A stretch of 64,000 nucleotides of DNA, taken from contig NW_026920486.1 of NCBI RefSeq assembly GCF_032062105.1, positions 1-64,000 of the forward strand, read 5' to 3'. The DNA is from Saccostrea cucullata (lineage: Eukaryota). The translations under genes and the position numbers were made by a program. The notes beneath the pieces are model-generated. The model was not told the DNA's origin. It made no database searches and saw only the letters and a program-made list of their open reading frames with translations. Positions 1 through 49,700 of the stretch are shown here, piece after piece (the first letter of the stretch is position 1; every line of letters begins with the position of its first letter).

Positions 1-327
1 AAAGCTGAATCTTATGTGGAAGCATCCTGGGGTTGTGTGAATTCTGAATCATTCAAATCATGACCCCCAGGGGTAGGGTGGGGCCTCAATAGGAAATCCA
101 AGTTTTACATTGAAATATAAAGGGAAAATCTTCTCAAGAACCACAGGACCAGGAAATCTGAAACTTAAGTGAAAGTATCCTGGGGTAGTGTAGATTTTAA
201 ATTGTTTAATTCATAACCCCTGGGGGTAGGCTGGGGCCACAATTAGAAGGGGGAGAATCTGGTGAAGAACAGCATGGCCAATGTGACCAATTCAGGTGAG
301 GGTTGTGGCCCATGGGCTTTTTGTTTT
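1..327 (+). mobile_element. 3' part of a HINE/Helentron-type non-autonomous element with ~170-bp satellite-like units
   Basis: Ends in TCAGGTGAG..GTGGCCCATGGGC plus a T-tract, like the complete copy at 23655-24402, and has similar internal units. Confidence 0.7.
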
Positions 328-26860: not shown

Positions 26861-26898
26861 ATATGCTTCATTAGTCAAAGATATTTATGATTCCCAAA

Positions 26899-29800
26899 AT
26901 GTCGGAGACGAGAAATGAAAATTTTACGAATTCTGCTTCAGATGATAATTTGTATGACTTTAAAATGAGGTTGATGCGACCACCACCAAAATTTCTGGAT
27001 ACGGGATTTAGTGAAAGTTCTTTTGAAAACAAAATATTAAAACATTCCTTTTTGCCAAGCGAATTTTCATCAAATTGTAAATTTGGATCAAAAGTTTCAT
27101 TTGGAATTGCAGCAAGGCTTGAGAACACTTCGAACAACAAAGAAAGTAAAAATGAAGAAACCGAAGAAAAATCTTTCGTGGAAACTAAGAAAATCAAATC
27201 GGAGAAACTTGAGGAAATCTCGAAGCCTTCAAACGGAAAAATAAAAACTGAAGATGAAAACAAATTCACCGACCCTGATCAGAAGCCACCTTTTTCGTAT
27301 GTGGCTTTGATAGCCATGGCCATAAAAGAATCGACTGAGAAACGCCTTACTCTTAGTGGAATTTACCAATTTATCATCAGCAAATTTCCGTATTACGAGA
27401 AAAACAAAAAAGGATGGCAGAACAGTATTCGTCACAACTTAAGCTTAAATGAATGTTTTGTGAAAGTTCCCCGAGAGGGTGGCGGGGAGAGGAAGGGAAA
27501 TTTTTGGACTCTGGATCCAGCATTTGAAGACATGTTTGAGAAAGGAAATTATCGCCGACGTCGGAGAATGAGGCGTCCGTACCGTGCTGCATTATCCCTC
27601 CCAAAGCCATTTTTTGCCCCAGAAACTCACTGTGGACCGTACAATCAATTTTCCCTGACCAAACCTTATTTCTCACCCCCTCCTTACTCTCAGTATTCCC
27701 AGTACCCAGGCTGGGCTCAAGCTCTGGCTCACAATTCTTCACAGGGAATGGCAAGTGCCATGAATCAAATCAACAATTACAGTTCTTGTACCCAGGGACG
27801 GGTACCTCCTCCGGGCGCCTCCATTGCACCGTGTAGCTACAACGCCATGCAACAGGCCATGCAGATATCCCCACCACACGCTCCCACGTACACACAGCTG
27901 AATGACTACCCAGCAGTCCCCACCCCCGGGACGGGGTTCCCCTTTACCTACAGACAACAGAGCGACACATTGAATCATATGCATTACACGTATTGGAGCG
28001 ACAGGTATTTTATGTTAATGTTTTAAATTTTAAAATTGGACGCACTGTCTAAAAGAAGTCATTTTTCATAATATGGGCATAACTTTAATGTATTGAAATC
28101 TCAGGCACTTGTTTCGGAGATAAATTTTTAACCCATAGTAGTGTTATTATTATACCATGGGTTAAAAATGTATATCCGAAACATGTGCCTATGATTGAAG
28201 AAAGAGCATCGATATGCTACATCTATTACTTTGTTTATAAGCATCCCCATATTATACAAACTTAAATACATGTTTTGTATAAATATTTATGTAGTTATGT
28301 TGATATTTAAATTATTGGTGTCCTTCATTTTGTTTTTTGAAAACAAAAAATAATAGTTAGTTGCTTTAAACAAAATAAAATCAGAAAGCGGGAAAAAATA
28401 TTTGCATATACAACGGTTATTATTTGGATAATAAAAATGACGTTTCACAAGAATGATAATACAATTTTAAAGGAATTAAATCTTAGAGCTTATCAGTAAA
28501 ATAAGAAACAGTTTCAGATGTTTTCAAAACCCTGTTGCAATTTTTTTTTAAGCATGAAACATCTTTATCGAGATCTTTAGATCAAAATTTTCTTTTATAT
28601 TTTTGAAGATTTCGATTTTTTTTTTCTATTTTGGTTTGATAGCATCATTTATTTTTTCATCTATAAGCATGAAAATAATTTTTTGCAAGATATTTTAATT
28701 ATTCTTAAAACTAGAAAATGATATCGAAATAACGTAAAATATGTTTATTGCGATTTAACTATAGTATTAGATAAACAAAGGTTGATATAAAATATAATTC
28801 GATCCGCATTTTTGCGACAAAAATATTCCTTAAAAAATGCGCAGTGTATGAAAAAATACTTCCGATGGAGCCTTACTATCATGTCAATTTCAAGAAAACA
28901 ATTTTTCTGTAAATATTATTCCGATAGTTTTATCATCCTAGTAAGTGGACAGTGGTATAATTTATTACAAAAAAAAATCAGATATTTTTTTTAAAAATTA
29001 CCATAAAGTCTTCTATTTCATGTAGAGGAGATAATTTGCCGCGTGTTTAGTAATTAGTGCGCTATCTGATCGTACATGATCGTACGTGCTCCCCTCCCAC
29101 TGATATAACAATAAGCTACAAGATTCCTCTCCGGTCCCGGGGGATTCCCCCTCGTCAATCAAGAGAGGCGCGGGTAAGCGCGTGCAGGTTTTTGTTTATC
29201 CATATTGGCCAACTGTTTATTTTGCATCTGTTTTTGTGGATAATCTCCACGAATATGAAACCTACACGGTTGTAAGTTACATTCAGTAGATGTTTGTCGT
29301 ATGTTTCTGTTGCTTGAGACAGGACAAGGAAAATAAACCTGTTCAGTGTTATACACTACACACTATTTGGAAGTGTTGTATCCAATATTGCTTTGGCTTG
29401 CTATAAAATGTTTGGATATACAAGGTATAATTGATAATACTAAATAATAATGAAAAACGAAAAAAAAATAATGAAGAAAATCTGCCGAACTATATGAAAA
29501 TGAAAGAAAAATTAGGTATCGACTACGTTCCGGATTTCCTTTAAAACATTTCTTTCTGGATGCAAAGTTCAATCTTTACCTCAAAAGATCTTTGGAATCT
29601 GGCCCCGGGATCATGAAGCATTTAGGTCAAATTTTTTTCTGTTGTACTAAAATATTGTGGAAGGCAAACAGGCCAAAATTAAACTGTTTCTCAATATTGT
29701 TTTTCAAAAGTGTTGTTATTTGCAAATCTAGAGATTTATTGAATAAATAATAAATATTTTACAGAAGATTGAAATTTTGACTTAATTCGAAGTTTGTTTC

Positions 29801-30675
29801 ATGATCCCAGGGCCTGATGAAAATGTTAAGTGGTTTTTTTTTTCAGACAGACAGACACACTGAATACGTAAATAGAGATAAATTCAGATTCTCTGACGTA
29901 ACATTAAATAAACAAATAAAAGAATAAATGAATAAAATTTATAAATGATAAAATATAAAATAAATTTTAAAAAGTGAATACTAGTAACTGAAAATTCGTA
30001 ATAGAACAAATATAAAAACATTACACTTAATTACATTTATTATGCATATTGACAGTTGAATTTAATGTATAAATGATACCGGTATTTATAATCGTTTCAG
30101 AAAAAAGAATAATCACTTTATTACATGTGCATATATATTGACTTTTTTCTCTTTTTTAAAAAAATTCAATTTTGTTTTTATATTTTTATTTTAATATATA
30201 TATGAATTCTCAAAATGTATTTCTTTTGTTAATTTTTTCGTTCGCTTTTTTTTCGATATGAATAGAAAATGTCCAGATGGGACCTCCTATTCAATATTCA
30301 ATTCAATTCATTTATTATTACTATTACACGTTTACTCAAGTTAATATATTTATATATTAAGGAAGATTTTTTTTTATAAGATTGTCTCGAATACATAGTT
30401 TAAAATATTTGTCCTTTATCAATCTATAACAGAATTATTTTCTCCTGAAAGCTGTCATGTACATGTATGTACATAGACATTTATATTTACCTCGTAGTTT
30501 CAACAAATAAAAAATAAAAAAAAAAAGACAGAAAAAAAGAAGAAAAAGATCAAATCAGTTTCTAGTTAAAAAAAAAAGTTCAAGTGACTGATTAAACAGT
30601 CTAATAACAAACAAACTTGCAAATCAAATTAGTTGTTAAATATCTGTCAAAATTTATTTTTTATTTTTCAGATAA
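26899..30675 (+). CDS. FOXL2: Forkhead box protein L2
   Basis: Forkhead domain [17 protein letters not shown]...[58 protein letters not shown] is diagnostic of FoxL2. Exon 1 runs from 26899 (or ATG 26887) to 28004 with donor AG|GTATTT; acceptor TTTTTCAG|ATAA at 30672 completes ...YWSDR*. The unspliced ORF would end at 28026. Confidence 0.95.
28103..28190. mobile_element. ~90-110-bp fold-back mini-MITE (second copy at 36850-36958)
   Basis: AGGCACTTGTTTCGGA..TTAACCCAT / ATGGGTTAA..TCCGAAACATGTGCCT. Confidence 0.75.
29035..29280. promoter_or_regulatory. CpG-rich intronic block with clustered TF motifs (candidate enhancer or antisense promoter)
   Basis: GGGGGATTCCCCC (29139-29151), TGTTTAT twice (29193, 29214), AACAAT (29107), reverse CCAAT (29204). 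Confidence 0.4.
29601..29814. mobile_element. MITE (PIF/Harbinger-like ends)
   Basis: GGCCCCGGGATCATGAA ... TTCATGATCCCAGGGCC. Confidence 0.7.
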
Positions 30676-32309
30676 ATGAAGGATATATCTCAGGAGAAGC
30701 AGTGTGCAGATCTCTGTATAAAATCTGGATCGTGAGGGTGTCATTCTGAACTGTTATTACAGAAAAACCATTTACATGTATCATTGTGCCATTCATAATT
30801 TATTCTGTTCATCTTTATCAATAATTTATTTGCAAAGAAATACCCCTATTGTGATAAATATGTATCTACAAATACAGTGTTGCAATTCTCTTTCACTTGG
30901 ACAAAAATTCCACTTGAACCCAAGACCATTGAAATCAGAATTTTGTTTTCATAATTTAACAGCCTCCGGAGAAACAAACAAACGTGAAGTCCCATGCATG
31001 CTGGGAAGGAAATGCATGATTACAGAGACATATGCTTAATTCTCTCCAGCTGATACAAACCCACACTTAGAAATTTCTTTTTATCTCAAATTTCATTTGA
31101 ACAAAAAACAATTTTTATATCCTGTCTTAAATCTAGATTTTTAAAATTATTTTTTATATGATTTTTTAAAAGAAACAGATTAAATATTTCATTTATGAGA
31201 TGGAAACTCCAAAAATTTGGGGGGGGGGGTATAATCAACTTAAAATTCTTCTTATTGTTTAAAGGGTTCTTCGCTTTCATTGTTTGTACACAGTGTATAT
31301 TTAAAATTAAATAAAAATAAATTTCCAATGATTCAGAATTTCTGTGTTGTGGATAAGGTTAAGTGAACTTGTATTCCGGAACCTTACCTTGCGAAGAAAA
31401 TAATTAAGTTGATATTTACAATTTATAGAAAAAAATACTTTCAATTAATCAGGAAGCTTCATTAATCGGACAATTAACGTCCGGATGGAGAGGTTCGACT
31501 GTATTTTCCATATTGGAACATTTTAAATATTTTGTCGAGACTATCAAGCAAATATTTTGGAAGCAAATATATTTTAAACCCGACGATCGTATCACTGCAA
31601 TTACGCAAGCATTTAAATGAGCGAAAGAAGCTGAAAGCTGAAAAATCTTCACTGTATAGTAACAAAAAGGTTTTAGACAATTTTGTGACAATGCAAAATG
31701 GGGATTACAACAACGACCTTTCTTACGGAAAATCGCTTAAATATTACACAGTCTGTGTGACCACTATTTATTTACACATAGACTTTTTCTTTTATTGGCT
31801 CTTTCTTCATATACTCGTACAATGTTATAAATAAAATGCATGCAACAAATTTAACTATAGACAATAACATTTATCTGCATCTTACAAGACAAGGTTTCTG
31901 ATTCATAGATCATTAAAAATTGTTTGTGAAGCTTACTATCTGCATAAATTTACACACAGACTTATATTTATGTATTTAGGAAAAACTGACATGATGTCTG
32001 CGTAATTTTTAAAAAACAAAATGAATAAAATTATTTTTTTTATTTTTTTTTTTAACAAAAAAGAGAATATTTCGGTATAGCCTTTCACATACATGTATTC
32101 AGAATAAGAGATGAGAGGTTAAATTCCCCATAAGTAAAATAATTAATTTCTGGCACCATCCTCTTAAATACAAGTGCACATTAATTTTAAAAAAAAGTGT
32201 TTTAAAGAAGCCAAAGAATCCGAGGAATGTTGTTTGGAAGAATTAGGAATGGAGCTAATGTTAGTAATTTATGCAAACTAATATAATTATTTTGGGTGAA
32301 AGTGTTTTC

Positions 32310-32950
32310 AGATATGTTAAAGGTACCCTAGATCTTCAAGGTCAAGAAATAAAAAAATAACATTAATGGTACCCAAAGAAAGGTTTTGTCCCAGTAAATA
32401 CAATTGTGACATATAAAGCCCAATTGCAACCACTCAGAAAATATTGATACGATATACCCCAAAAATCAAGATCTTAATATCAAAGACGTTGGTAAGCTTT
32501 TCTCGAAAAAAAATACACATATGACATTGGAAATTCCTAGCACCCCGGAATAACTCTTCAAAAGTTATAATTATAGCAAAGGTTTTAGTTTTTATGCCCA
32601 TGATATCAAGGATTCGGGGTATATAGTTTTTGTCCTGTCTGTCTGTTTATCTGTTTGTCCGCAAAAACTTTAACATTGGCGAAAACTTTTGACTGCATGG
32701 TTCAAACTATGGCTTTAACTAATTTTAACCTTGGCCTTAATGTTTGAACAGTTTGTGCTAAGGTTTTCAAACTTCGTTTGTGAAACACTGATGCCACGTA
32801 TGGCAGATTGCGAGGATTGAAGTTTTTCAAATGCAAGTCAAATCCAAGGTCAAGGTCAAAATTGTTGGCATCCAGAGAAATGTCTTATCACAAGAATTAC
32901 ACTTGTGAAAAATGAAAGCCCTTGTACAAACTGATCAAAAGTTTTGGCCT

Positions 32951-32981
<31 letters not shown>

Positions 32982-33650
32982 ATAAGGGCAAGGTCAAAAT
33001 GTCCAGAACTTTTAAACCCATTGAAAGGTATTGTCAAAATAAATATACACGTGAATAGCACCAACTGTTCAAAAGTTATGGCAAAGGTTAAAGTTTGATA
33101 TTTTTTGTATAGGTCGGTCAAACTCCAAGGTCAAAGATAAGAGGTCAAAGTTTGTGGTACCCGCAGAAAGGCTTTGTCAAAAGGAATACACCAATGAAAT
33201 ATGAAAGTCATAGCCACACCCATTCAAAATTTATAGCAAGGTTAAAGATTTTGTGGACAAATAGACAGACAGACAGACAGAAAACTAGATAGACAGACGG
33301 ACAGACAGGACAAAAACTATATACTCCTGAATCTTCTATTACGGGTGCATAAAGAACTTTAACTTTGGGCATTTCACATTGTATTTCATGTGATAAGACC
33401 TTCCTTTGGATATCAACAATTTTGACCTTGGAGACTGACCTACTTTAACCTTGGCCATACATTCTGAGATGTTTTGCTTGGGCTTTCACATTTCACATGT
33501 GTAGACCCACATTTAAAAACTTTTACCTTGACCTTGATGGTTAGTGCATTGGCTTTCACATTTCACAGATTTCCTCATGGCCTTGAACTTTGAGTTGATC
33601 TTTATTTAAAAAAAAAAAAAGATTTGTTTGTGAAACATCAGCAGCATCAT
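32310..33650. repeat. Cluster of nested, degenerate HINE-type elements with ~160-bp units in both orientations
   Basis: Recurrent CAAGGTCAAGGTCAAA and AAAAGTTAT..CAAAGGTTAAAGTTT units, GACA/GTCT microsatellites, heads at ~32592 (+) and ~33352 (-). Confidence 0.65.
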
Positions 33651-34401
33651 TTTCATCAAAGACATATTAATTGAGAGGACAAATTATTTCTTAAAGTTAC
33701 ATTTTTTATCACTTTGGAGTTTGACCTGCATTTGAGAAATTCAACCAAAAGCTATCATACTGAAATTTAGAGCATACATGAAATGTTCCTTGTTTCTGCT
33801 AGGAATAACTTATGCATGCAATGGCCCCCTCCCTCGCAAGAAGCTAAACACCTGTTATTTGTCAAAAATGGAACCCCAACCCCCGATGATATTATCAATC
33901 TTGACTTAAACACAAGTGTTGCAATGCATTTTATTTCCATTGCCTTATTTTAAACTTTTTACATTGTATAGTAATACTTTGTGCCCTTGATTGCTAGATG
34001 ATTGTATCTTGTTTAACGTCTCTCTCGGTTGAGAATTATTCTCTCGTATGGTGACATTGCCATTACTGGTAAAGTTCCTGTCGCGAGGGGATGCTCCGCC
34101 TAGCGGTGCTCTTGTTTTTGAATCGTTATACAATCAGTACGTGTGTGGCATGACTTAATTGTTAAATGAAATATCTGTCATAAATATTCAAAATTAAATC
34201 ATACCTATACCCACTTTCCTTCTATAAAATGTTTATGATATATACATTTTTTTCCTGTTATTTTAAAATTCCTATATATTGGATCAACCCTTTATTGATT
34301 TCCTTCTTCCCATGCTGTTTTTAAAGTCTATGTTTACAATTTATCAATTATCATCTCAAAATGTACTTAATTATTTCGTTCGGAAATCAACATCTATGGA
34401 T

Positions 34402-34676
34402 CCATGTTCAGAACCGAAAAACCATCTAAAATATCAATAAGTGACACAGACAAGACGATATACCAGACAAACATCAGTTCCTATTTAATCACAGAAAGAG
34501 ATAATTTTCGAAAGCCATTATTACATTTCTATCTATTCATGTTCATGATGTTCAAAACCGCAAAACCATCGAAAATATGAATAAGTGACACACACAAGAA
34601 GATATATCATGCAGACAGACATCAGTTTCGATTCAGTCAGGAAAGAGCTAATCTTCGAAATCCATTATTATATTTT
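34402..34676 (+). repeat. Diverged ~145-bp tandem duplication
   Basis: ATGTTCA.AACCG.AAAACCATC.AAAATAT.AATAAGTGACACA ... TTCGAAA.CCATTATTA twice. Confidence 0.8.
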
Positions 34677-35463
34677 GAAACCCTAGCTGGTTCCCGTACC
34701 AATATTTAAGTGATCACCAACGATAAGAGTAAACAACCCCCCTCTCGTCTAGCGCCATCACCAGATCCCTTAATTACTCGGGAACAACGTTAATCTACTT
34801 TTATCCTCATGCCCTCTTGCAGATGAACAGTCAGGGGAAAAGTTTTGACACACGCATCCATGCAGAGTAAACATTTTGACAAATATTGGCTCACCTCAAA
34901 GAATTTTTTCCAAACTTTTTTGTGGCCAAAATGCAACTGGCGCGCGGGCTTTCACTCAACGTTGTATCGGAATGCTTATTTTTCCAGCGAATGTCATATA
35001 AAAAGTTAATTTTGTAACAACAACAAATAATCCTAATGGTGTTTTTAGTGTTTAACTGAATCTAAATGCCATGATGCCTCAAGTAATGGAACGGAAATTA
35101 TCCATTTGAAAAAAAATCTTATGGAAAACGCATAGAACTACGTGTACTAGTATATTAATATCAAGAATTGTTATTAATAAAATTGATTAAAAATTGGATT
35201 TTTAAAAAAGATTATATTAAGCATATTTCCTCTTTCACTCTCCTTTTTAACTCACAATAATTAATTTAATTATTTTAATATTTTACATATGTACATTGAT
35301 GTTGATAGTTTTGCTTTTATTTTTTTTTTATTTATCAATTCATAATTATATACCGGTATTTATTTATAAATTTATTTATTTCAAAGATAAATATTTTAAT
35401 TCTTATTCATATTTGCATAGATTTATACTTCCTTTTTTCTACCATTCATATTGTTCATCATCA

Positions 35464-35900
35464 TAAGGAATCAATTTGGGAAACATGGGATAATTTGCAT
35501 AACGGGCGAAGCCCGTTATTTATTTCAAAGATAAATATTTTAATTCTTATTTCTAACTAGACAGTGATTCCTTATATTCTCATTTCATTGTGAAATAAAA
35601 TGGTAGCTTTAGACTTTAAAAATGTAGACATAGAATTAAATTACACGAGGACTTCCATGTCAATTTCAATAGTCCTCGCCCAAACAACTAGGCAGCCGCA
35701 CGAGATTTACATGCCCATTTTGCCTCCTTAGCATCAGACACAGAGACAGATGCGCACGAGATTTACATGCATTTTAGGCCTCCTTAGCTCCTGACCTAAC
35801 GACCTGCCTAATTTACATTCCGGCAGAATTATCAAGAAATAAACTCCGACAACTTTCAAAGAGTTATCGCAGAGAAAAAAAATTAGAAATGGAAATATTT
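35464..35900 (+). mobile_element. Second copy of the hairpin-bearing element at 9467-10404
   Basis: ATAACGGGCGAAGCCCGTTAT stem-loop; body colinear with 9616-9680 plus 10133-10404. Confidence 0.75.
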
Positions 35901-36732
35901 TGGAATTAATCTTCTTTAGCATATTTGTCAAAAATAAAATGCATAGAATATATAAAACTCTATAATCAGGGTATTGAAAAATATTTCTTTACACATGAAA
36001 ATACTTTGTTACCAGAAATATGATACGGCTTTGATAGGTCTAATAAATCTGAAAAATAATAACAAATAAATGTACTAGTCTAGTATTTTTTGGAATGCAG
36101 AATGGAAAAGCGATATTTAGGGTATATGACTTCAAATGAGCAATCCTCTACAAGGTTCTAGAGGGTCCTGACTCTAAGTAACAGTCCTATGCACGACTAC
36201 GTCTCCTTATGTTGTAAGGATGATTTTAGACTTTATGTGGAGGCGGGGGGGGGGATAAGTTAGCAATATGAAAATTATAATACATTTACATAAGTTTCAG
36301 AGATCATCAAATTCAAATGTACATGTATTTCATAACAATGAAGGGTTAATAAATTATGTGGAAGTACTCGCTGACATATTTCTAATAAAAATTGAGACTG
36401 ATTTCTTCTTAGAGTGCAGTTAACATAATTATTACCTTTTTAAATAAAATACACAAATTCAGGTCACTGTGAAAAGACTTTCAGGGGGCGAGACTATCTC
36501 AGCTAACATATCGGTGTCGTGTGTATTTATTTAGCTTGAAAAGTCCTACCCTTATATCAATATTGAACTCATTACCAATATTTGATTTTTTTAAAAGGAC
36601 TTCGGGTACAAAAAGCATACTTTATTTTTTACCGTTTAAAAACTGTAACACCATTTTATACAGCTCTCCATAACACAGCTCAAACTCTCACTAGATAAAT
36701 AAATGCAGTGTAGCATTTTAATTTCAGATATT

Positions 36733-36812
36733 TTTTTTGTTTGTTTGTTGTTTGTGAGGGTGTGTGTGTGTGTTTGTTTGTTCGTTTGTTGTTATTTTTT
36801 TTTTTTAGTATG

Positions 36813-36843
<31 letters not shown>
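36733..36843 (+). repeat. Compound GTTT/GT/TTTTG microsatellite
   Basis: Directly visible simple repeats. Confidence 0.85.
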
Positions 36844-36849
36844 GGCTAC

Positions 36850-36958
36850 TGTAGTCACAGGTACTTGTTTCGGAAATAAATTTAACCCATAATATAATAG
36901 TCTTATTATTAGTACTACGGGTAAAATTTATTTTCGAAACAAGTGCCTGTGACTGTAG
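36850..36958. mobile_element. Fold-back mini-MITE (same family as 28103-28190)
   Basis: AGTCACAGGTACTTGTTTCGGAAATAAATTT / AAATTTATTTTCGAAACAAGTGCCTGTGACT. Confidence 0.8.
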
Positions 36959-37982
36959 TTCACACTTAGTTCGTTGATTGTTTCTACCTCCGTTACATAT
37001 AGTGACGACAAATTTCCATTATTATACAAACTTCTTCAAAGAAATGTTTTCATCTAAGAAAAATATTTACAGTATCTGCTCATAACCTGCGAATCTTATG
37101 TTGAATCTCACAGAACCCTATATTTGTTTTCTTTCCGGGATTGTATTCACTTCTGACTATTTATTTGTAATTTTTCTTGGTCCATCAAAATTCATCCGAC
37201 CTCCCAAGCACCCAGTCATGTTGTGAAGAAAAAAACACCAAAGCATAGCTCTTTTTCTTCGTAATCGTATATTTAGTTTTCCGCATAGATTATTTTTTCA
37301 TCTTGACGTTGGAATTAAATGAACGAAATGCCCTTCCGTGCTGTTTTCTTGCGCACAAGTCAAAATTGCATCTGCATTCATCCGAAATAATCCGTAAAAC
37401 CCACCGCGTAAGCCCCGATAAAAGAGAAAGTAATATAGCATTTCGCCAATGTCCTGTTCGGTTTCCTGCTTTCAATTCGTCCGGTGTGATTTTTAAGTTT
37501 TCTCTCCAAATCTATCAGCAATAATTAGCCTTTTTCTTTATTTTATCTTCTAAACAAATGCACGGATTTCTTGTTCAACAGATGTTTTTGTGTAGCTCTT
37601 AACTCTGGCATATGTTTTACAAACAAGATACTGAAACGGAAAACGGTTGCTGAAAGCTCGACTAATCATCGGCGAGGCGGGCGATTCGATGTCCCATTTG
37701 AACCATGGGATTTGTTGAGTCCTCTTAAACTGCAGAATCATTGATGTTTCTGGTGATAGAACAGAAGACAAGCATGAAACAACTGCCCAGTAGCTACAGA
37801 TTCCTGCATTGGTACAGAACTATCGATGGTATACACTATATACTTATATACTTGCTTTCATTTCTTCAACGAACTTACTGGGTAAGATCCCGTTTGAAGA
37901 CTATTATCAAAACATCATCAGCTAATTCAGCTGAATTCTCCATTCATTTTTTATTCAGACCAGTTGGCTGGTAGTCTATTCC

Positions 37983-38721
37983 TTTTTATGGCTCTGTGAT
38001 CAAAGACTCGATTGGAGTCAAAGTTTTTGGTCTATCCGTCTGTTTGTCTGTCAATGAGTGTCTCTTATCTGTTTGCATGACGGTCTGCAAAAACTTTGGC
38101 CCTGCCCATAAACGTTGATTGGTTGATGCTAGGTTTTCATAGGTATTCCTTTCAAAATCTCTCTTTGGACACCAACACACATGAATTTAACCTTTTGAAC
38201 TGGACCTCAGAGTTAAAGCTACCCTTTGTAAAAATTTGAAAAACTATTATTAGCTTTGGTCATAAGTCTTGAATGGTTGGTGCTATAGCATATATACACT
38301 GTATATATTTCATTCTACACTACCTCAGGTTGCTTCTACATTAGTTTCAGCTTTTCTGGCCAAATGGATCTTGAGAATACTTTTTAATGTCCCCACCCCA
38401 TTTTTGTCTTTTCTTGATTATCTACCCTTAAATTGGAAGCGGGCTTGGTCCTTGCTTTTTTTACAATTCAAAACCCCCTTTACTCAAGGATGCTTTTACC
38501 TATACTTACATTGTAAGTTAAAATTTACCCAGTGGGTTAATGATAAGAAGGTGAAAATGTGAAAATGTTACAGACGGACAGACAGCTAAACAGACGGACG
38601 GACGCTGGACAAAAGGTGCTCAGCAAAGCTCACTAATTGAGCCTTCGGTTCATGTGAGCTAAAAAGCCTAACTTTGGCCTTGAACTCCCATACATGTATG
38701 GCATCGATCAGTGTTTCACAA
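37983..38721. mobile_element. HINE-type element with an oppositely oriented HINE nested inside (~38310-38665)
   Basis: GTCT-rich head on +; GACG/GACA microsatellite and GAGCCTTCGGTTCATGTGAGCTAAAA head on -; tail CAGTGTTTCACAAA. Confidence 0.6.
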
Positions 38722-39770
38722 AGTCATCGTCATATATTTAAGACCCTGAACTTAATTAATTTAAATCTGTAGTTGATTGTGAATAAAAAGGCATCATTAT
38801 GTGATAAAAAGAATTTACTTAACTTACTTAACATTTTTAAAGAAATACTAGTATTTATATAAGATACTTGTGTAATACACTGTATTATAAATGTCAAAGC
38901 CAATTAAGTTTCATCAATTCTGGTGTACTTTAACCGGGTTATGAGCGGAGATTTCCTGTAACTTTTTCTATATGGAAAATTATAGTTTGAGTTTATAAAT
39001 AATTTTCACTATATACTCATCTTAATTGTTCAAGGGCGGATGATATCAAGCGTGTATAACTAGCGATAGACATTCCAAAAAAAAAAACGACAATTATTTT
39101 TGCAATGAATGAAGTTACTTCTTTATCCATAAAACTTTATTTTAACGATGGAGTTTTGCATCATCACCTGTCCACCTCAACTCAATATAATAAACTCTGT
39201 TGATGTGAATCAATTGGCTCAGAACCTTGGGCTGACTTTCAATTGAATGATAATTTGAAAAATATGGAAAGCGACCAAAAGCACGTTCACAGCGATTTAA
39301 CATTGTATGTCATTCGTGTACCTGAAAACATGCAGCTGTTTAATCAATTCAAACTTAATCGATCAAAAAAATATATATTTCATACAGTGTATAAAAATAA
39401 TAAATATTTTAAACTTTAGGAAATTTTTTTATGGCACTATAATGTGTTTTAATACTGGATGGACATGCATGTGTATTCATAAAATAATGACCACATATTA
39501 TGTTCACAAGTGCAAAAATTTAAATGCTTAATTGAATCTTTGTCTTTGGAATATTTTCAGTTATCACATACTGGCGCTTTGAGTTGGATTTTTTTCACGG
39601 TTTTCAATCGTCAAAGTTAACTAAATATGTATTTGGAGTAGCATCTTTCACATTCCCTAACATAATTAATGTTTCAACAAATCTTAGGAGTATATGTCAG
39701 ATTTTAAGTCGGTGCGGTTAACAGTCAAAAACAGTGATATTTACAAAACAAAGACCTAGGTCGGGTGAGG

Positions 39771-39971
39771 TCAATGCGATCCTTTGGAAGACCCTGATCC
39801 TCTGCGCTTATGGTGTCCTTTCTTTCGGCCTTTTCCGGAGCCTTTTCGGCTATGTCCGGAGCCCTTTCGGCTGTGTCCGGAATGTGGGCGGGGTCCTCCA
39901 CACTTACAGAATTTGTTGACTTCTTTCATGACTCCCCCATTTCCTTTACCACTGCAGCATACATTCCCCAT
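39771..39971 (-). CDS. Small 66-aa basic Gly/Ser/Lys/Arg/His-rich protein with predicted N-myristoylation/palmitoylation head
   Basis: Acceptor TTTTATGTCTGTCTCAG directly precedes the ATG; MGNVCCS...; GC-rich island in AT-rich DNA; in-frame 21-bp repeat; upstream donor GAC|GTAAGC at 40965/40964; AATAAA at 39141-39136. Confidence 0.7.
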   Translation of the reverse strand: MGNVCCSGKGNGGVMKEVNKFCKCGGPRPHSGHSRKGSGHSRKGSGKGRKKGHHKRRGSGSSKGSH

Positions 39972-40086
39972 CTGAGACAGACATAAAATATTGATAAAAA
40001 TCTTAATATACCGGTAAAAATATCTAAAGTTATAAATAGTTTCATAGTTTGAGGTGTTTTTTACTTGTTTATACAAACACTTTACT

Positions 40087-40629
40087 AATTGTGTTTGTGG
40101 AAAAATCGAAACAACAACACACTTTTTATCAGAATGTCTTCTATACACTGACTCAAGGAAAAAATTCATCGACCCATTAGGACCAGTCACTTTACACATT
40201 CTCTTATTTGGAGATTCTACTAAGAATTATTCCTTCAATACCAACATTTTTAAACATGTGCATCAATTTATTTCTGCCTCTAAAAGATTTGTAACTTGAA
40301 TATTACTTGTGGCCGTATTGCTATTATGTTTGATTTTGTACTGCAATGTATGACTGTGTTTATTCCTCATTTACTATCAATGTTAATTTATGTTATGATA
40401 TCTCTCTCTACATTTTTTTTTCTTCTCAGTTTTGTTTCATCTTTATTTTTTATCTGTTATTTTTCCCATTATACCTGTCATTCAACAAGGGCAAATGTTT
40501 ATTTATAGTTGAAATTTAACTTAAGGAAACGGATTAATATAAGTTGTTACAACTTGTTTCGGAATCCTGTTTGTATTATGTATTGTGTATATATATGATG
40601 TCTAATTTAAATGAAATAAAGTTTAAACT
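40087..40629 (+). mobile_element. 5'-truncated non-LTR retrotransposon (CR1/L2-group-like 3' end) with 12-bp TSD
   Basis: Encodes CVCGKIETTTHFLSECLLY...LLFGD...VHQFISASKRF, a typical ORF2 C-terminal CCHC region; tail AATAAAGTTTAAACT; AAACACTTTACT duplicated at 40075-40086 and 40630-40641. Confidence 0.85.
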
Positions 40630-42299
40630 AAACACTTTACTTGTATTTTTCATGCAACTTCGATATAACCAGATTTTGTTTTAGAATTGGAGTTAAACAA
40701 GAATACATAAACACTTAATATGGTGTTACATTTGTAAATTTAATTAAAAAAAAAAAATCAATAAAACATAATGAAAATAAACATAAAAAAAAGAAACAAA
40801 ATTCGAAAAATAGAAAATATATAAGAGAAGACAACACCCCCTACCCCCTTCTCCCCAAATAACATGTACGTCCCTTAGAAACAGTCTCACAATTATTGAA
40901 TTATATTTATTAGAGATCTTTTCATTACATTTTAAATAGATCGAGTAATATAATGCACGCTTACGTCAACAGTTGGATTTATTTGTTTAGCTCTCAATCA
41001 CACGTAAACGCACTCAATACTCCCTGCCTAGTTTCGCTATACTGTCCCTTTTGTGTCTTTTACAATACTCTGCATTCAGTGCATATCACTAAGAATACTT
41101 CGCTTTCAGTTGGCCTTTATGCATATATTTAATTGCTTTGTCAACGATTAGAATTTTAAAAAAAAAATTATAATAAAGAGAATTCGTTTTAAGCGATTTA
41201 AACAATTGTATTAGTTCAATACGCTGTAAGAATACCTGCCCCATTAAGATTTTGTGTCATTTTGATGCAAATTGTTTGATTTCTCCTGATATACATACTG
41301 TAACTAACAACAAATCTTTGCATGGGGAGCCCCAACAAAGACCGTTGTGACATGACCCGGCGAGTTTTCCTTTGAAGTCAACCGTACTGTAACTGCGATA
41401 CAGAACACTTTTTGTGGGCGTTTCTTATGCAAATGAGCAGAAACTGTACTGTATCTGCAAAATATCAAAGATACAGTACGGTTTATTTTTAGCGATGACG
41501 GAAAGCTGTATTCATATTCAGACACAACAATCGTTCAATTCGCATGATAGCACTGTTAGTAATTACTCAAAATTTGAGGTGATTTTATTAAGAATAAAAT
41601 TTTACAAAATAAACTTATATGAGTGTCAGATTCAAAAAATTTAGAAAGGAGGGAGTGGGGCAGATCAAAAAGGACTATCTTGACCCCCCTAAAAAATCCC
41701 TGAAAATCGTATTGGGGGGGGGGGGTAGGTTTATAATCAACCAAGACACTATGTGCGTGAAATCGTTACTTGTTGATAAATTAAAAAGAGTATGTATATA
41801 CGATTGGCAAAAATAATTTACAAAAGCGAAAAAAGAAAAAAAAAAACTTTAAGTTGGGTGGGATTGGGGGGGGGGGGGGCAAGTGTGAGTACTGGACCCC
41901 CCTTTGGTTACTCTACATTTTATTAAAAACATGAAAGTAAAATACCCCCCCCCCCTTTCTTTCATCTGTTTATTTCAATTTTGTATATGATTACAGGTTA
42001 GAGGATATTGTCGGAGATTTCTCTCAGTATACGATATCCCCGAAGCATTTTTGTTTCAAAATATGATTCTTATATATAAAAATGTTTTGCATTAATTCAT
42101 AGCTTAAATAAAAAAAAATGTCAGCAAGAGCTGAATTGAGAAAAAAAAAGAAACATACCCAATCAAATCTAAATAAATTTTTTGGAAAACAAATTATATA
42201 ATGCATCCCTCAAATAATTATTTTTAAAATAATAGTAAATAATTACCTGCACGTCCACCTCACTCGGCATTTCAGTTGCGAATGCTTAAAATGGGATAC

Positions 42300-42515
42300 T
42301 AAATCAACTTTCTGCTAAAATCATCTGATTGGTTGAGAGACATGTACCCAAATATGAATGTAAATTGGTGAGGTCATTAGAAAGATCATGTCACAAGTCA
42401 TTTAGAATACTCGTTTCCTTGTATCAGAGATACATGGCGGGGCCCGGCTCGAGCTATCGCTCTCGCCTCAAGCCCCGCCCTGTATCTCTGATACAGTAGG
42501 GAACTCGTACTCTAA
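42300..42515. mobile_element. Hairpin-bearing non-autonomous element (Crypton-like; class inferred)
   Basis: Fold-back at 42402-42514: TGTATCAGAGATACA.GGCGGGGC ... GCCCCGCC.TGTATCTCTGATACA; upstream TCTGATTGGTTGAGA motif. Confidence 0.6.
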
Positions 42516-45500
42516 ATAATACTTAATATTAATAGAAAAAAAATCGATTTTAATGTTTTGTGATATTTATTTTTCGTTTGCACAAAACAAGTTGAATTTT
42601 AAAATGCAAATATTTTTGAGTAGTAATTTGAAAAAGAAATACCATCTAAAATCTTTATTGTGAATATTGCTTTATGGTTGTTGTCAAATCAACATGCAAC
42701 TACATGCATAATTCCTGTCAGATGAAGCATATGAGGATTTTTTTTAAATATTAAATTATTTTTTTTTTATTTCATTCAACCTGATCGATATTTAATTATG
42801 TTTTATATTCCAGAAGACATGGTCCCCAACACTGCCTGACTAAGTACACAAAATAAATTATAAAATCTGGGTAATTTTATTTATAAGGGGTTGTAAATCC
42901 CTTCCTGCGAACTAGATTGTTTAGTTTGTTAAAGGGAGAAAAAAAAAACTTTATTGTAGGGTGTGAACGAATTTACTGTTTATCTTTATCAAGCATCCTT
43001 ATACGACTTTAAATATATAAAGATCATTTAACAGTTTCGCGAAATTCATTTCGAGGAATTCTAAATGATTTTTATAGCATATTAATTGATTGGGAGAGAC
43101 TCTCTCAGACACAATCACGTACACACACAATAAATAAAGCATACAATTTATATGTTTCAAAGTAATACACATGCAGTGCAGTCTCATTTTTTTTTTTTTA
43201 TTTCGACGGTTATATTTTTCTTCAACGCTTTTGGTACTGGAGCATTTTTTTTATAATTTATAACTAATAACTTGATTGTACTCTATTCCTATAAAAAAAA
43301 ATCCATTTTTCATTTTGTACAATTGTATAAGAATGATCTTATATCAGTCCTAAGGTAGTTTTTATTAAGCAGTGCGCTCTACTTATATGTTATTATTATT
43401 ATTTATATCAAATTTCTGAAACCGCTATACTGAATGTCACAAATGATAATATACTAGTAAGTGTCTTTATACTTTCTGATTATTATTTAAGGCTCGAGCT
43501 CAATGAACCTTTAAGAAGAGAGACAACTCTCGCTTTGATTGCAGTTTCATTTCATGCAAATTGTCAAAAAAAAAAGCGATTTCTTAAAGTTTGTACCTAG
43601 ATTTGTTTCCATGTCAATGGCAGATTTCTTTTACAAAATTTGTGAGACTGAACAAATCGAAGATGAACCGAACTAATTCCAGAATTCTTTTTCTATATAT
43701 GGAAAATATCTTACGAGAGTAAGAATAGCTGAAGCAGTTAACTGTAGGGCATCCGTTTAAATTTTCAGTTTTTACATCATTGTGATATATTCATCCATAT
43801 TTTTTCTTGATTTTTACACATACATATGCTTTTTCAAGAAAATTGATAAAATGTATATTTTCTTGCAATTTTTGGCAACAGTGTCCATAGCGTTAATTTA
43901 TATTTTTAAAATTATTAAAGATTTACAGCAAAAGTGACAAACTAGACAAACATTTTCTACAGTACAACTTACCTTTAAATGTAATTTATAAAGTGCAGTG
44001 AAGCCTCTCGGTTAGAGATTCTATTTGCAGTGAAGTTACGCTGGTCGGCTGCTAATATGGCGGTTACTAAGGCGCTACCCATCAGAATCGATAACAAACA
44101 AAACACAAGGACCCCTACACAAGAGCTGATTTGAAAAATATAACTAGACTTTGAATAAAAGTGTTGACTTGTATATTAATGTGAACTTTTAAATTCATGT
44201 TTGTTCGTAGGTGGGGTATTTGCTTGGACAATTCCATAGGACGCGTTCGTTGCATGGTCTCAATTTATACCCGGTATAAAATGCATGATCTACGATCATT
44301 TTGCACTGATTGTAATATTTGTATTTCAGTTATATATACGTACGTAGTAGGCCAAAAAATTTACAACATACAGTTACAATTTTTACTCCCCACCCCCAAT
44401 CCAAAATCTTATTCCGGAAGGGGTTGGATGGGTCTAAATTCCTTTTTCGACTAAATTTTATCAGTATCTTACCAAGTAACCATGTTTTAACTGTGCTACA
44501 AAAGTGGGGAGGGGTATTGAACAATGGTATGATTAATAGTAGCAAATAACTCATATAATTATATTCTTGCTCTAAAGTAAAGGATTATATTTATGGGAAG
44601 AAGAAAAGAGTGTGAGCATCTGTGTAGATCCCATTCCCGCTGGTTCCCTGGTTCTACAGAACCTGCCTGTATATTTTTTTTTTAAAATCATAGATACATG
44701 TACCATATACCTAAATAAACATGCATTATGTGAAAACATTTTAAACGTTAGTGATGATATATTTTGCCAATCGAACACTTGAAAATCCGTAATCATTTAA
44801 GTTTTGCGCGTTCATCAAACAAAGTTATAAAATACGATTCATTTTGTACACAGCTGATTGTACAGATATCCTTCCTCATAAAATTTACATATACAAAGTG
44901 CTTTATTATCATATACATATCAAAGGCATACACTTTCAGTATAAATCGTGTTTTACAGGCGCGCGGATCAAGGATTTTTTTCCAGGGGAGGGGCTCCACC
45001 CAGGTCAACATAAAAAAAAAAACGTAAATTCATACTACATATTTCGGGAAGGGGGAAATTAATCGTTGATTTTTAAAGGTTCATACCTTTGACTTAATAT
45101 TTTCATATCATTTTCACATAGATCCTCGTTTTCGGGAAGGGGTCCGCGTTTTCTAGGGGGTCCACTTACATGTACTTACATAAAAGGATTCGGAAAGTAA
45201 TAAATGAAGTGTTATTAGTCTTTTTTCTCAAGATAATTTATGATCAGCATGAATTAATGCATTTTCCACTATGATAAACCTACCTATAAATTATTTTGAA
45301 GGAAGAAATTCTTGAATGATGTAGGCGAATCCATGCATATATGTCCACTTCTTCAAGTTCAAGAGGATATATGGGGAGGGGGGTTACAGTATGTCGTGCA
45401 CCAAATACTTGTGCAAAATTATAGTATACATGTACTTACTTTATGCCCCCCCCCATATACATGTGTAATCCCCGAAAAATGTTTCCTACGAGCCTCGATA

Positions 45501-45950
45501 TACGTCCATGTCTCTTTATGTATTATGTGCAGAGCCCTACTAATTATTCCGGATATATTTTATGGACCAGTTCCAGTTTTTCAATTTAGCGTGTTTGTAA
45601 AGGGAGGTAACATGTAAACTTCCTGTAATGTTCTCGATGCTGACCATGTAGATATTTCATTGAATAGGATTTCCAATTTAAAACGTAATTTAAGGGTAAC
45701 AAGATCAATTATATAAATATTTAATACATAAAGATATTGATGAAAATTAATGTATCGATTTCAAATCTTCTTTTCACGAAATATCACATGAAAGAAGTCA
45801 TATGTGGACGAATTGCAATTCGAAATTCAGTTTTATAACAAATAAATTGTTATCGCTATTGTAAATGAAATCCACAAATGTTGTATGAATTATTTTTATA
45901 TGTAATATATTATTGACGATATTGCGTGCTGATACTTACAGATATCTAAA

Positions 45951-46710
45951 ATGACAGACAAGGCTACCCCTAATCCTCTTGAACAGTTTGTTCTGTTGGC
46001 CAAAACTGCAAAGGGGGCAGGAGCTGTAGAATTAATCAAGCAAGCTCTTGATGCTCAAGGCGTATATGTATTTGGAGAACTTCTGGATATGCCACATATT
46101 CAAGAGGTAAATACTGTGAATCACAAGATGTTGACATCTGACAACACGATTCTAGTCTACATGCAGCTGATAACATTCTCTATGAAATTGTATTTCTTTA
46201 AAAAATTGATTAAGATCAGAGTTCTTGAAATCTTTTTTTCACTGTCAGTCATTTGGACTGACTGCCATGTGAAGTCCGTCAGTCCAGACAGATTTCTATC
46301 AGTCCAATGTAAATTCAATAAAAAGATGAAAACTTTATTCAAATTTTATTATCAATATATTGTGCACCCTTTGTCAATAAACACTGCACACTTCATTCTG
46401 ATTTGATCGTCAACTTTCTTTGAATTATCTCGGTGGTTGTTTCTTCATAGGTTTTTAATCTAGTTCGATTTTCTCAGAAATTTTTCAATGCACATTTTAA
46501 AAGCAGCTCAATATTTTAAGTAAACCGTCAGTCAAACGTTTTGATTGCAAAAGAAACTATCCTCTGCCACCTTTGAAAGATTACGATCAAACGGTTATTG
46601 GGAATTTGTACGAAATTTAGTTGGATTTTCGCAAGTTCGTCTGTAAACACTTACCGGTCATTTGGACTGACACAGAACGCAAAGTAATCAGTCCTTGGTT
46701 GTTTTTATCC

Positions 46711-46741
<31 letters not shown>

Positions 46742-49700
46742 ACTCTGTAAGATGAAAACCTATAACTGTTTAACAAGTTCTTGTTTCTATATTCTTATAC
46801 AATATTTTTGCAGGATTTTATAATATACCTTCATTTGTTTACGTATTTTTCAGCTTGCCTCTGGTCCTCATTCACAGTATCACAATCTCCTCAATATATT
46901 TGCGTATGGAAGTTACAAAGATTACAAAGGTACTACAAATGTTTTATTTAAAACATAAGATTATTGATTTATCAAATTCTTATTTTTGTTCAGTGAACTT
47001 TCTTATAAAAATATGATACATACTAAATTAGTTATCTTTATGACTTACAGCAGGTGCTGCGAACTTGCCAGCACTTAGTCCAGCACAGCTTACAAAACTG
47101 AGGCATCTGACTATTGTGTCATTAGCAACAAAGAATAAGGTATTATTTTACTTTCTGTAAAAAATGAAAAAAGCAGTTGCTTGTTCACTCATTTAACAGA
47201 CAAACAGTGATGACTACTGAAGAACTGGAAACTTTGACAAAGTGGAAATGTTGACGGAATAAACAATTGACTCAAAATTGTTGACGGAATATACAAATCA
47301 CTAAAATTGTCAGAATTTACACTGGTCAGCTTTTACATTCATAAAGATCACTGTTAAATAACAAGTAACTGTATATCAAAGTCTTTCAGATATACAAAAG
47401 TTATCAAACTTTCAGCACTTCAATGTAACCATGTTTATGGCATGTATTGAGAGGGTGAAATTTTGGAAATACAGGTGCTATATGTTTTGTCTTTGCAGTG
47501 CATTCCCTATTCAGTTCTTCTGGAGGAACTAGACATACAGAATCTAAGAACTCTTGAAGTAAGTCTCCATAAAAAAAGGTCCATCTATTCTGTTAGTTTT
47601 GAAAGTACATATAAATACATGTATATAGAAGTAAGCCATATGGCAGCCAAATGACAAACTATCAAGATTTGAACTTTGTGTTTCTGATATGCTATAGATG
47701 TTTGAATAAAAGATGGGTAAAAATCTTCAGATTTTGTATGTTACTTTATTTTTATATTTATACTAGTATTCTTTTTTGTAGGATTTAATTATTGAAGTGA
47801 TCTATGCTGATATAGTACATGGAAAATTAGATCAGAAAAACCAGCAGTTAGAGGTTGATTATGCCCTGGGGCGAGACATTCGACCAGAGGCCGTCCCCGA
47901 AATCGTGTCTGTTCTGCAAGACTGGTAAAGTACCATGATGTATAAACATGTACATGTATTAAGCAAATTATACACTTAACACAGGTGATCAAAAAGTTTG
48001 AGGACTGGTTTGATAGAAAACTTGACATGTTTATCTCACATGATGTTGATGTAATTGCACCACTTAACAAACTTTTTGATCACCTCTTTTACATTGCAGC
48101 TATATACAGTGAAAAAGTATAAGGTGGAAAGACAAGTATATGTATCAGTAATACACTTACAAAACACAATACAGCAATGGGATGAAAAAACTATGAAACA
48201 TACATTTTTATAAGGCTGAGCTCACTTATTAATAAAATGCATGTGAAAATTGACTTTGTTAGGTTAAGTTTATTGTGTAAAAAGCATTGTGAAGAAAATT
48301 GTTGGACAAACTTTCAGGTGTACAGGCTGTGAGGCGATGCTTCAGAGTATAGAATCCCAAATCTCCAAGGCGAACCAAAATAAGGAAAATAATATACGAA
48401 TCAAACATCAAATAGAACAGGAGGTAGGACTTTTCATAAATTTTATGCTTTACAAGTCTCTCATTTGTTTTACTGGAATTACGAAAAAACAAGAACTTTC
48501 ATGTTTGGAACACGATTTTACTGAATTAAGAAAAACAGCTTTAAAAACTACATTCAAACCTCAGTATGGAAAATACTGTGGCTTCCAGAAAAAAAATGTT
48601 AATTAGTGTATTCTAAATGTGTAAAAAATTATTATTATTTTATAATCAGGTGATAAATATAAAGAAAACTCTGAAGAATACACAGCAACAGGAATCAGAA
48701 GAACAGATGGTGACAGATAGCCAAGTGTCCATGTCCTGTGATAAACCCAGCAAGAAATCCTCCAAAACAAAAGGGTAACTATATATGCCACTGGAACAAA
48801 TGTGTCCTTGTTACTTTACATACTGTACATTTTTTAGGGTTGTCTGGTAAAAATAGTAAGCATAGCATTTTAATTGCGCACCACCAAGGAATAAGATTTT
48901 TATAAGGGAATATGCTAGAAGTATTAAATAGATAAGGTTGGGGTAAAAATTATCAGATTTTTAAGTTCGCTCTCTATTATGTTGTCATTTTGAAAATACC
49001 AAGGAATTTGCCTAATTTTTGGCAGGAACAGTCTTTGAAATAAGAAATCAGTAAACATACTGCAAAATAAAATATGACGTTTGAAAACAAAACAGCTCTC
49101 TGAAGAGCAGTTCAGTTTGACCCTCTTAATATTTACAAAATGTAAGATATTCAATATCACCAATACATTAAAATACAAGTGGAATCGGTATTTTTCAGCT
49201 GAAGCTTTTTGATTAAGTCCTCGGGTACGTCAAAACAAACAGACAACCATCTTCATGAATTTGCAATATTAATGAAATACACTGCCAATGCATACTGCCA
49301 AAAACGACAGCAGTTTTAGTTAAGAGAAAGCAAGAGTATTTTCCATTTCTTAATAAAATGAGTTTTCATAAGGTGCCATATATATGCAAGATTGGTTCTC
49401 AAATGAAGTTCCAAGAATTGCAAATGTGATGTTGCTTTAGGCATTTTGATGTTATCAATAGTGCCCTGTATCACCAAACAGCACATAACATAAAATCTCA
49501 TATATTTTTTTATTTGAGCATGAATTTTGCTATGTTTATTGACCAAAAAAATGTGCCAAAGATGTAGAGGAGGAAAAATTAGAGCTGATTATTTTTCACT
49601 CTAGATTACATGTTCATGATTTCACCAGATAGCCCCTTTTACGTATTGTACACAATATATTTTTAGCTCACCTCAACGAAGTTGGGGGAGCTTATGTAAT

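Follow-up and report, generated by a model that had tools for sequence, protein, structure and literature searches.

A transcribed oyster gene encodes a member of a conserved microprotein family with an acylation-type head and repeated kinase-type motifs

On the minus strand of the 64,000-nucleotide stretch of Saccostrea cucullata DNA analysed here (the window; contig NW_026920486.1, positions 1 to 64,000 of the forward strand) lies an open reading frame (ORF) of 66 codons, whose product joins a short head of the kind that receives lipids to a strongly basic, serine-bearing tail. An earlier note on this DNA had proposed a lipid-anchored, phosphorylation-switched micropeptide. The locus thus raises two questions: whether the ORF is a gene at all, and what a protein built in this way would do. 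We report that the ORF belongs to a real, spliced and transcribed two-exon gene, and that its product is a member of a genuine, unnamed and probably bivalve-wide microprotein family in which the acylation-type head and the kinase-type motifs are selectively retained. With moderate confidence we favour a reading of these sequences in which the product is a microprotein, both N-myristoylated and S-acylated, that would remain membrane-bound while phosphorylation by PKA/PKG-type kinases weakens the grip of its tail on acidic lipids.

The proposed frame, 39971-39771, and its translation were reproduced exactly on re-translation. RNA evidence was drawn from four of the 24 available runs, mapped to 28000-47000: three poly(A) raw-read runs from one study (X22-X24) and a contig set from another (X3), with the best 15 of 113 splice joints examined. 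A spliced transcript is present in all four runs, as anticipated, but it uses a joint other than the predicted 40965/39971. In X22-X24, 5, 7 and 7 reads connect 39971 to 43973, skipping 4001 nucleotides (CT..AC on the plus strand, equal to GT-AG on the minus strand), and an X3 contig of 916 nucleotides, at a depth of 92, spans 39129-39971 and continues with 46 letters at 43973. The site GAC/GTAAGC at 40965, which had been described as a strong donor, is ruled out as the main donor of exon 1 by the joint at 43973 among these best joints, by its weaker consensus (6/9 matches, equal to three other chance sites within the intron, versus 9/9 at 43973) and by an RNA depth of 0-0.9 across the surrounding region (40680-41313); it may still serve as a minor donor.

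The gene model, all on the minus strand, begins with a 5' untranslated region (UTR) in exon 1 (43973-44042) that ends at the donor AAG/GTAAGT; its 5' end is not fixed, 44042 being the furthest reach of the joint-spanning reads, whose exon 1 side comprises at most 70 letters. A GT-AG intron of 4001 nucleotides (39972-43972) holds the donor-like site at 40965 as well as small repeats or elements resembling miniature inverted-repeat transposable elements (MITEs). Exon 2 contains the coding sequence (CDS) of 66 codons plus TGA (39771-39971), followed by the 3' UTR (39129-39770). Since exon 2 opens with the ATG at the joint, exon 1 is non-coding, and the spliced start context reads AAG-ATG-G, with A at -3 and G at +4. 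The acceptor proposed to lie right before the ATG was found there as CAG, with a modest pyrimidine tract (15/22), and the AATAAA expected about 630 nucleotides downstream is located at 39141-39136, 626 nucleotides past the stop, close to where the match to the RNA contig stops (39129). The GC content of the CDS is 52%, versus 30-31% in intron and 3' UTR, and its depth of 14-32 reads per run is of the same order as that of the joints of the neighbouring gene COPS7. Exon 2 has no second copy inside the window, which bears on the earlier concern about repeat copy number. The X3 contig differs from the window by 30 gap letters, the sum of seven indels that all fall in the 3' UTR (39190-39663), and the CDS is therefore free of indels; among 15 listed of the 41 contig substitutions, seven lie in the CDS and change five codons, three synonymously (53, 60 and 66) and two by exchange of R and K (49 and 50).

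Three further frames were noted at this locus. An ATG at 44082 (minus strand) would, should the transcript begin far enough upstream, open a 35-codon upstream ORF whose stop lies slightly short of the donor of exon 1; a second in-frame ATG at 39929 (M15) would give a 52-residue form without the myristoylation signal; and a 142-residue ORF from 40199 is an apparent read-through into the intron.

Sequence searches recovered relatives of the protein. Among proteins of 30-175 residues, phmmer identified nine relatives among 13 candidates, and a profile search gave 14 matches among 8000 scored candidates, the same 14 being returned by a broader profile. A metagenome scan added L001, a 52-residue ORF (one of 80 pattern matches), and an index-free hidden Markov model (HMM) search of 1.84 billion representatives returned five clusters, all of them already known members; no longer or fused form of the family was found at E<=0.001 in an all-length HMM search. 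The final family comprises the window protein and 14 relatives of 52-73 residues, 15 sequences in total, for which the N-terminal extensions of P0007 and P0008, which look like intron read-through, were left out of the counts. A further candidate paralog, P0004, was rejected and left out of every alignment and count: it is a bisulfite-converted copy, with C>T changes explaining 23 of its 24 differences from P0002. A protein database lists this converted P0002-like gene in the guise of a paralog, its TGA codons translated as W, and its CGN arginine codons are converted too, suggesting that the sampled CDS lacked methylation. Among oyster genes, an unmethylated CDS typically marks regulated genes and not housekeeping ones. 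The ORF L001 (L001:1102-1260) lies on a 4-kb metagenome contig that is probably host DNA; a possible acceptor, CCAG, 13 nucleotides before its ATG would match the 5'-UTR intron of the window gene, and no DNA similarity was found between this contig and the window.

The frame, which the earlier note had wished to see conserved, is kept in all 14 relatives, and frame, start and motifs persist across the 15 sequences at 38-94% identity. The tree divides them into two branches with support of 100/100, eight window-like (MGNxC) and seven Dreissena-like (MG[SG]C). DPMN_017524 of the zebra mussel Dreissena polymorpha (E 8e-12 with profile A2), the sole member named at its source, as a hypothetical protein, shares the head, K-C-x-G and RRGSxDS repeats, and differs in having 59 residues, one Cys at each head end and Asp in the repeats. 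Because of this member the family is not narrowly lineage-specific, as had been supposed: Dreissena belongs to Heteroconchia and oysters to Pteriomorphia, and the origin of the family is therefore placed at least at the root of Autobranchia. Members outside bivalves were not identified, 13 of the 14 relatives carrying no taxon label. The statement that the protein belongs to no recognised named family held in Pfam, PDB, ESM Atlas and the literature. Only one of the 14 relatives has a record in NCBI/UniRef, and none is named or placed in a Pfam family; Pfam gave no family for the window protein and two chance matches among the 14 members (E 0.11 and 0.62), the PDB sequence search no match (best E 5.5 and 0.27), and ESM Atlas no match with either the window protein or P0014. 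Phage records and viral contigs contained no family match, no paper was found for the DPMN_017524 locus tag or the family motifs, and topic searches, judged by titles and abstract openings, returned none on the gene.

These results bear on the simplest rival explanation, that the transcript is non-coding or the ORF a chance product of repeats. The ORF is short and of low complexity, oysters are rich in repeats, and the oyster phosphoproteomics supplements PMC13280272 and PMC11552224 hold no match in their accessible parts. The frame, start and motifs are nevertheless conserved in 15 sequences, the indels are confined to the UTR, exon 2 is single-copy in the window and Rfam gave no match across 28000-46000, so that we regard a chance ORF as very improbable.

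What the family retains is concentrated in particular parts of the protein. The reported composition of 17 K/R, six H and one acidic residue was recovered, together with 17 G, 10 S and 4 C, and the invariant columns in the 15 members are M1, G2, K23, C24, G26, P29, G32, G37, G58, S59 and S62. The window has 243 ATG-started ORFs of 40-100 codons, and no other joins an MG start of the myristoylation type to at least two R[RK]xS motifs. Residues 1-7, MGNVCCS (39951-39971, minus strand), form a predicted signal for N-myristoylation at G2 and S-acylation at C5/C6. In the family, M1 and G2 are followed by N, S or G at position 3, by Cys at position 4 or 5 (15/15), and by S (10 members), C (four) or G (one) at position 6. 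These residues fit the myristoylation rule MGxxxS (PMC7216078) and the finding that a small residue without charge is favoured at position 3 (bioRxiv 10.1101/2021.06.22.449375), and thereby support a myristoylated head.

A second candidate membrane contact is found in the neck, where residues 15-24 (39900-39929, minus strand) are predicted to form a short amphipathic helix ending in FCKC, with C22 and the invariant K23-C24. AlphaFold models a helix at low confidence in this segment and coil for the remainder. The hydrophobic moment of the window segment is 0.68 (p=0.003 versus shuffles of the segment) and exceeds that of shuffles at p<0.05 in 11 of the 15 members; the neck ends in FCKC or VLKC, and K-C-x-G is kept in all. 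This segment is likely a second S-acylation or membrane-insertion site, and the product is likely held at the inner face of the plasma membrane.

The tail is of a different character. Across the family it comprises 35-47 residues, mostly Gly, Lys, Arg, His and Ser, with 0-2 hydrophobic residues and a net charge of +6 to +15; in the window protein it has no hydrophobic residue and a net charge of +13. The in-frame 21-bp duplication previously described is real, amounting to 2.9 copies in one analysis and three copies at 71-100% identity in another. Its three units (39823-39885, minus strand) encode the SGHSRKG-type repeat containing S38 and S45, and the number of units varies among relatives, with three in P0001. 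At the C-terminus, RRGSGSS (residues 56-62; 39786-39806, minus strand) presents a basophilic site followed by Ser at +3, and here G58, S59 and S62 are invariant. The three PKA-type sites that had been proposed stand as motifs, three R[RK]xS being present versus 0.22 expected in shuffles (p=0.001), but the kinase cannot be fixed as PKA because PKG and further basophilic kinases accept R[RK]xS as well. The motif R[RK]GS occurs two to four times per member versus 0.04-0.10 expected (p<=0.0006 in each of the 15). All 44 R[RK]xS sites carry Gly at -1, 30 of 41 scorable sites carry Ser at +3, and after 44 of 45 dibasic ends the next residues are xS; within these motifs lie 74 of the 105 tail serines. 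Since the features invariant in the family are exactly those on which the lipid anchor and phospho-tail reading depends, the family comparison strengthens it.

Charge by itself could point elsewhere. A sperm nuclear basic protein or other nucleic-acid-binding protein, with the R[RK]GS repeats as phospho-regulated DNA-binding units and the Cys residues serving for cross-links or Zn, would account for the isoelectric points of 10.5-11.9 and net charges of +8 to +19 across members. SP[KR]-type motifs occur in two of the 15, FoxL2 is a neighbour, and bivalve sperm contain diverse, fast-evolving basic proteins, the protamine-like PL-III/PL-IV being likewise short and very basic (PMC5550673). Such a role, however, leaves the invariant MG start with S/C/G at position 6 without function, RS/SR dipeptides number just 0-3 per member in a family that is not RS/SR-rich, no H1-type or other Pfam match is present, and in the distant branch an Asp within the motif (RRGSNDS) reduces the charge. 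The transcript level, of the same order as that of COPS7, was moreover found in libraries without stated tissue or sex. We consider this reading improbable.

The same holds for a reading as a leaderless cationic peptide that either kills microbes in the manner of molluscidin or binds metal through its His and Cys residues. The window peptide is strongly cationic, with repeated dibasic residues, six His and four Cys, and molluscidins are gill antimicrobial peptides with repeated dibasics and a non-amphipathic structure (PMC11767717), traits that the composition of the window tail shows as well. Yet the MGNVCC start, followed by no hydrophobic stretch, provides no signal peptide, an xS after 44 of 45 dibasic ends would not be needed for such activity, the homologs include no antimicrobial peptide, and the family is small and conserved rather than multigenic or hypervariable, as far as the searched sequences show. 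No molluscidin or protamine-like protein is named among the homologs, most of which are unnamed, and molluscidin was compared by description only. From both classes the family differs in its invariant MG..C head, K-C-x-G and R[RK]GS(xxS) grammar, and both explanations are weaker; they account for the charge, whereas the constancy of the head and the patterning of the serines go unexplained.

The membrane-anchored reading would operate as follows. After removal of Met, Gly2 would be myristoylated; C5/C6 and C22/C24 would then be palmitoylated and helix 15-24 laid on the bilayer, giving a stable anchor. The hydrophobe-free tail would rest on phosphatidylserine (PS) and phosphatidylinositol 4,5-bisphosphate (PIP2), clustering them. 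A PKA/PKG-type kinase would phosphorylate R[RK]GS at S38, S45 and S59, which would prime the +3 serines S41 and S62, as in the CK1-type consensus. At -2 per phosphate, the computed charge of the window tail falls from +13 to +7 and then +3 under stepwise phosphorylation, and that of Dreissena-like tails from between +6 and +11 to between -3 and 0. The tail may then lift off, freeing acidic lipids or exposing a phospho-docking surface, with the acyl chains holding the protein in place because several Cys predict a stable anchor. Overall the protein would be a minimal acidic-lipid buffer or adaptor gated by cyclic AMP (cAMP) or cyclic GMP (cGMP). The MARCKS-type electrostatic switch invoked in the earlier note, known together with PIP2 sequestration from MARCKS itself (PMC10771482), is kept in its logic, but full release from the membrane appears less likely than a switch of the tail only, because each member has two to four Cys. 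Phosphorylation could also gate palmitoylation; in BK channels, phosphorylation of a polybasic domain controls palmitoylation (PMC3256903).

The strictness of the motif also admits a less likely alternative, the nearest rival, in which the phospho-motifs of an acylated membrane adaptor would provide docking sites or act as decoy kinase substrates, the partner being 14-3-3, calmodulin, a kinase or a phosphatase, with lipid sequestration of minor importance. An effect of charge alone would not call for the sequence specificity of the strict Gly at -1 and of Ser at +3. When lipidated, polybasic termini can bind Ca2+-calmodulin, and phosphorylation reverses this (PMC7216078), and the myristoylated microprotein C16orf74/MICT1 works via a docking motif (PMC12170882). 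The tail, on the other hand, is nearly without hydrophobic residues for a docking interface, IQ and PxIxIT motifs are absent in 15/15 members, and the review on calmodulin binding cited above points out that no such binding is reported for palmitoylated RAS isoforms (PMC7216078).

Several observations weigh against the phospho-switched membrane anchor. The protein itself, its lipidation, its phosphorylation and its localisation are all predictions from sequence. The residue after the motif Ser is G, K, N or H, or P in 2/44 sites. PKA prefers a hydrophobic residue at +1, which makes these residues atypical of optimal PKA substrates. Tandem duplication and shared ancestry deprive the motif counts of independence, and their p-values therefore overstate the evidence. 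A fully phosphorylated oyster-type tail remains net positive (+1 to +5), the window's own N-terminus has Cys and not Ser at position 6, the AlphaFold model is of low confidence (predicted local distance difference test score, pLDDT, 54), and the amphipathic signal is marginal (p>0.05) in 4/15 members. RNA reads are about 95% identical to the window and therefore derive from a divergent population or sister species. No family peptide was found in the accessible parts of the two phosphoproteomics supplements named above, although this test is weak when the peptides are short and hydrophilic and their ORF lacks annotation.

The predicted design resembles MARCKS, GAP-43/BASP1 and C16orf74/MICT1, but membership fails in each case. 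MARCKS has a much longer, acidic chain and a basic effector domain with interspersed Phe. The window protein, in contrast, has 66 residues, is basic throughout with a single acidic residue, lacks Phe in its tail and has sites of PKA/PKG type rather than PKC type; the extra Cys of its family predict palmitoylation, hence retention on the membrane, and there is no sequence homology. Both have a signal for myristoylation at the N-terminus and a chain that is disordered, and in both, phosphorylation of serines in a polybasic stretch would cancel charge; PIP2 sequestration as in MARCKS is possible for the window protein (PMC10771482). The IQ motif of GAP-43 and neurogranin is missing from all 15 members, without homology to either, and, unlike in GAP-43/BASP1 (CAP23/NAP22), the basic cluster is located away from the lipid, as a tail of repeats at the C-terminus. 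GAP-43 is a small acylated membrane protein with a basic, phosphorylatable segment. The family would resemble this group in its small size, acylation, disorder, membrane location and basic stretches that can be phosphorylated (PMC7216078). C16orf74/MICT1/calcimembrin is also a microprotein (76 residues) with a Gly2 plasma-membrane anchor and ties to PKA signalling, but acts by a PxIxIT calcineurin-docking motif that the window family does not have (PMC12170882). It has neither polybasic R[RK]GS repeats nor homology to the family. Small dual-acylated A-kinase anchoring proteins such as AKAP18-alpha and smAKAP bind the PKA R subunit through a long amphipathic helix; the window helix, with 10 residues (15-24, pLDDT about 55), two Cys at its end and a Gly-rich segment before it, is probably too short.

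Regarding the neighbourhood, FoxL2 lies at 26887-28026, and human FOXL2 is its best match in PDB (E 3e-59). The tail-to-tail arrangement with FoxL2 described earlier is true in geometry, but about 11 kb with repeats lie in between, and the suggested connection to FoxL2 found no supporting evidence. COPS7 (from about 45.7 kb) is the nearer neighbour, arranged head-to-head; its first exon is non-coding (joint 45684->45942), and about 1.7 kb separate its first donor (45684) from exon 1 of the 66-residue gene, so that the two divergent genes possibly have a promoter region in common. A splice donor, AG/GTAT, probably terminates the FoxL2 ORF at about 28004/28005, in which case the final residues YFMLMF may be encoded by intron sequence; the RNA depth seen at 29268-29901 may reflect a downstream FoxL2 exon or a repeat, with no such joint among the best 15 of 113. 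High-copy repeats between FoxL2 and the gene are located at 32438-33705, 34974-36241 and 38144-38777 (X3 word depth 700-8300), the last with three further partial copies in the window (125-194, 19577-19785 and 23651-24003). The intronic segments 41345-41520, 42420-42495 and 40146-40553 show internal inverted repeats (26-nucleotide and 24-nucleotide arms) or short RNA contigs and resemble MITEs or other repeats transcribed elsewhere. Other genes in the window are a 927-residue C2H2 zinc-finger ORF (808-3591, minus strand), PIGA exons (10701-18337, plus strand) and RCC1-repeat exons, presumably RCC2-like (58755-61324, minus strand).

The locus reveals a conserved gene family missed by annotation. 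If the proposed mechanism is correct, a lipid switch like that of MARCKS, shortened to 52-73 residues and tied to cyclic-nucleotide kinases, arose independently in molluscs; the design principle is already known, and the surprise is moderate. An unlikely but more specific form of the idea is that the protein would be the smallest known stand-alone cAMP-gated acidic-lipid capacitor, with permanent anchoring through a myristate and two palmitoylation sites, stepwise discharge of PIP2/PS by PKA-then-CK1 phosphorylation of tandem RRGSxxS units, and copy number tuning the switch between species. Were this true, the family would be a candidate for the missing PKA effector in the serotonin/cAMP-controlled physiology of bivalves, including gill cilia, catch relaxation and sperm activation.

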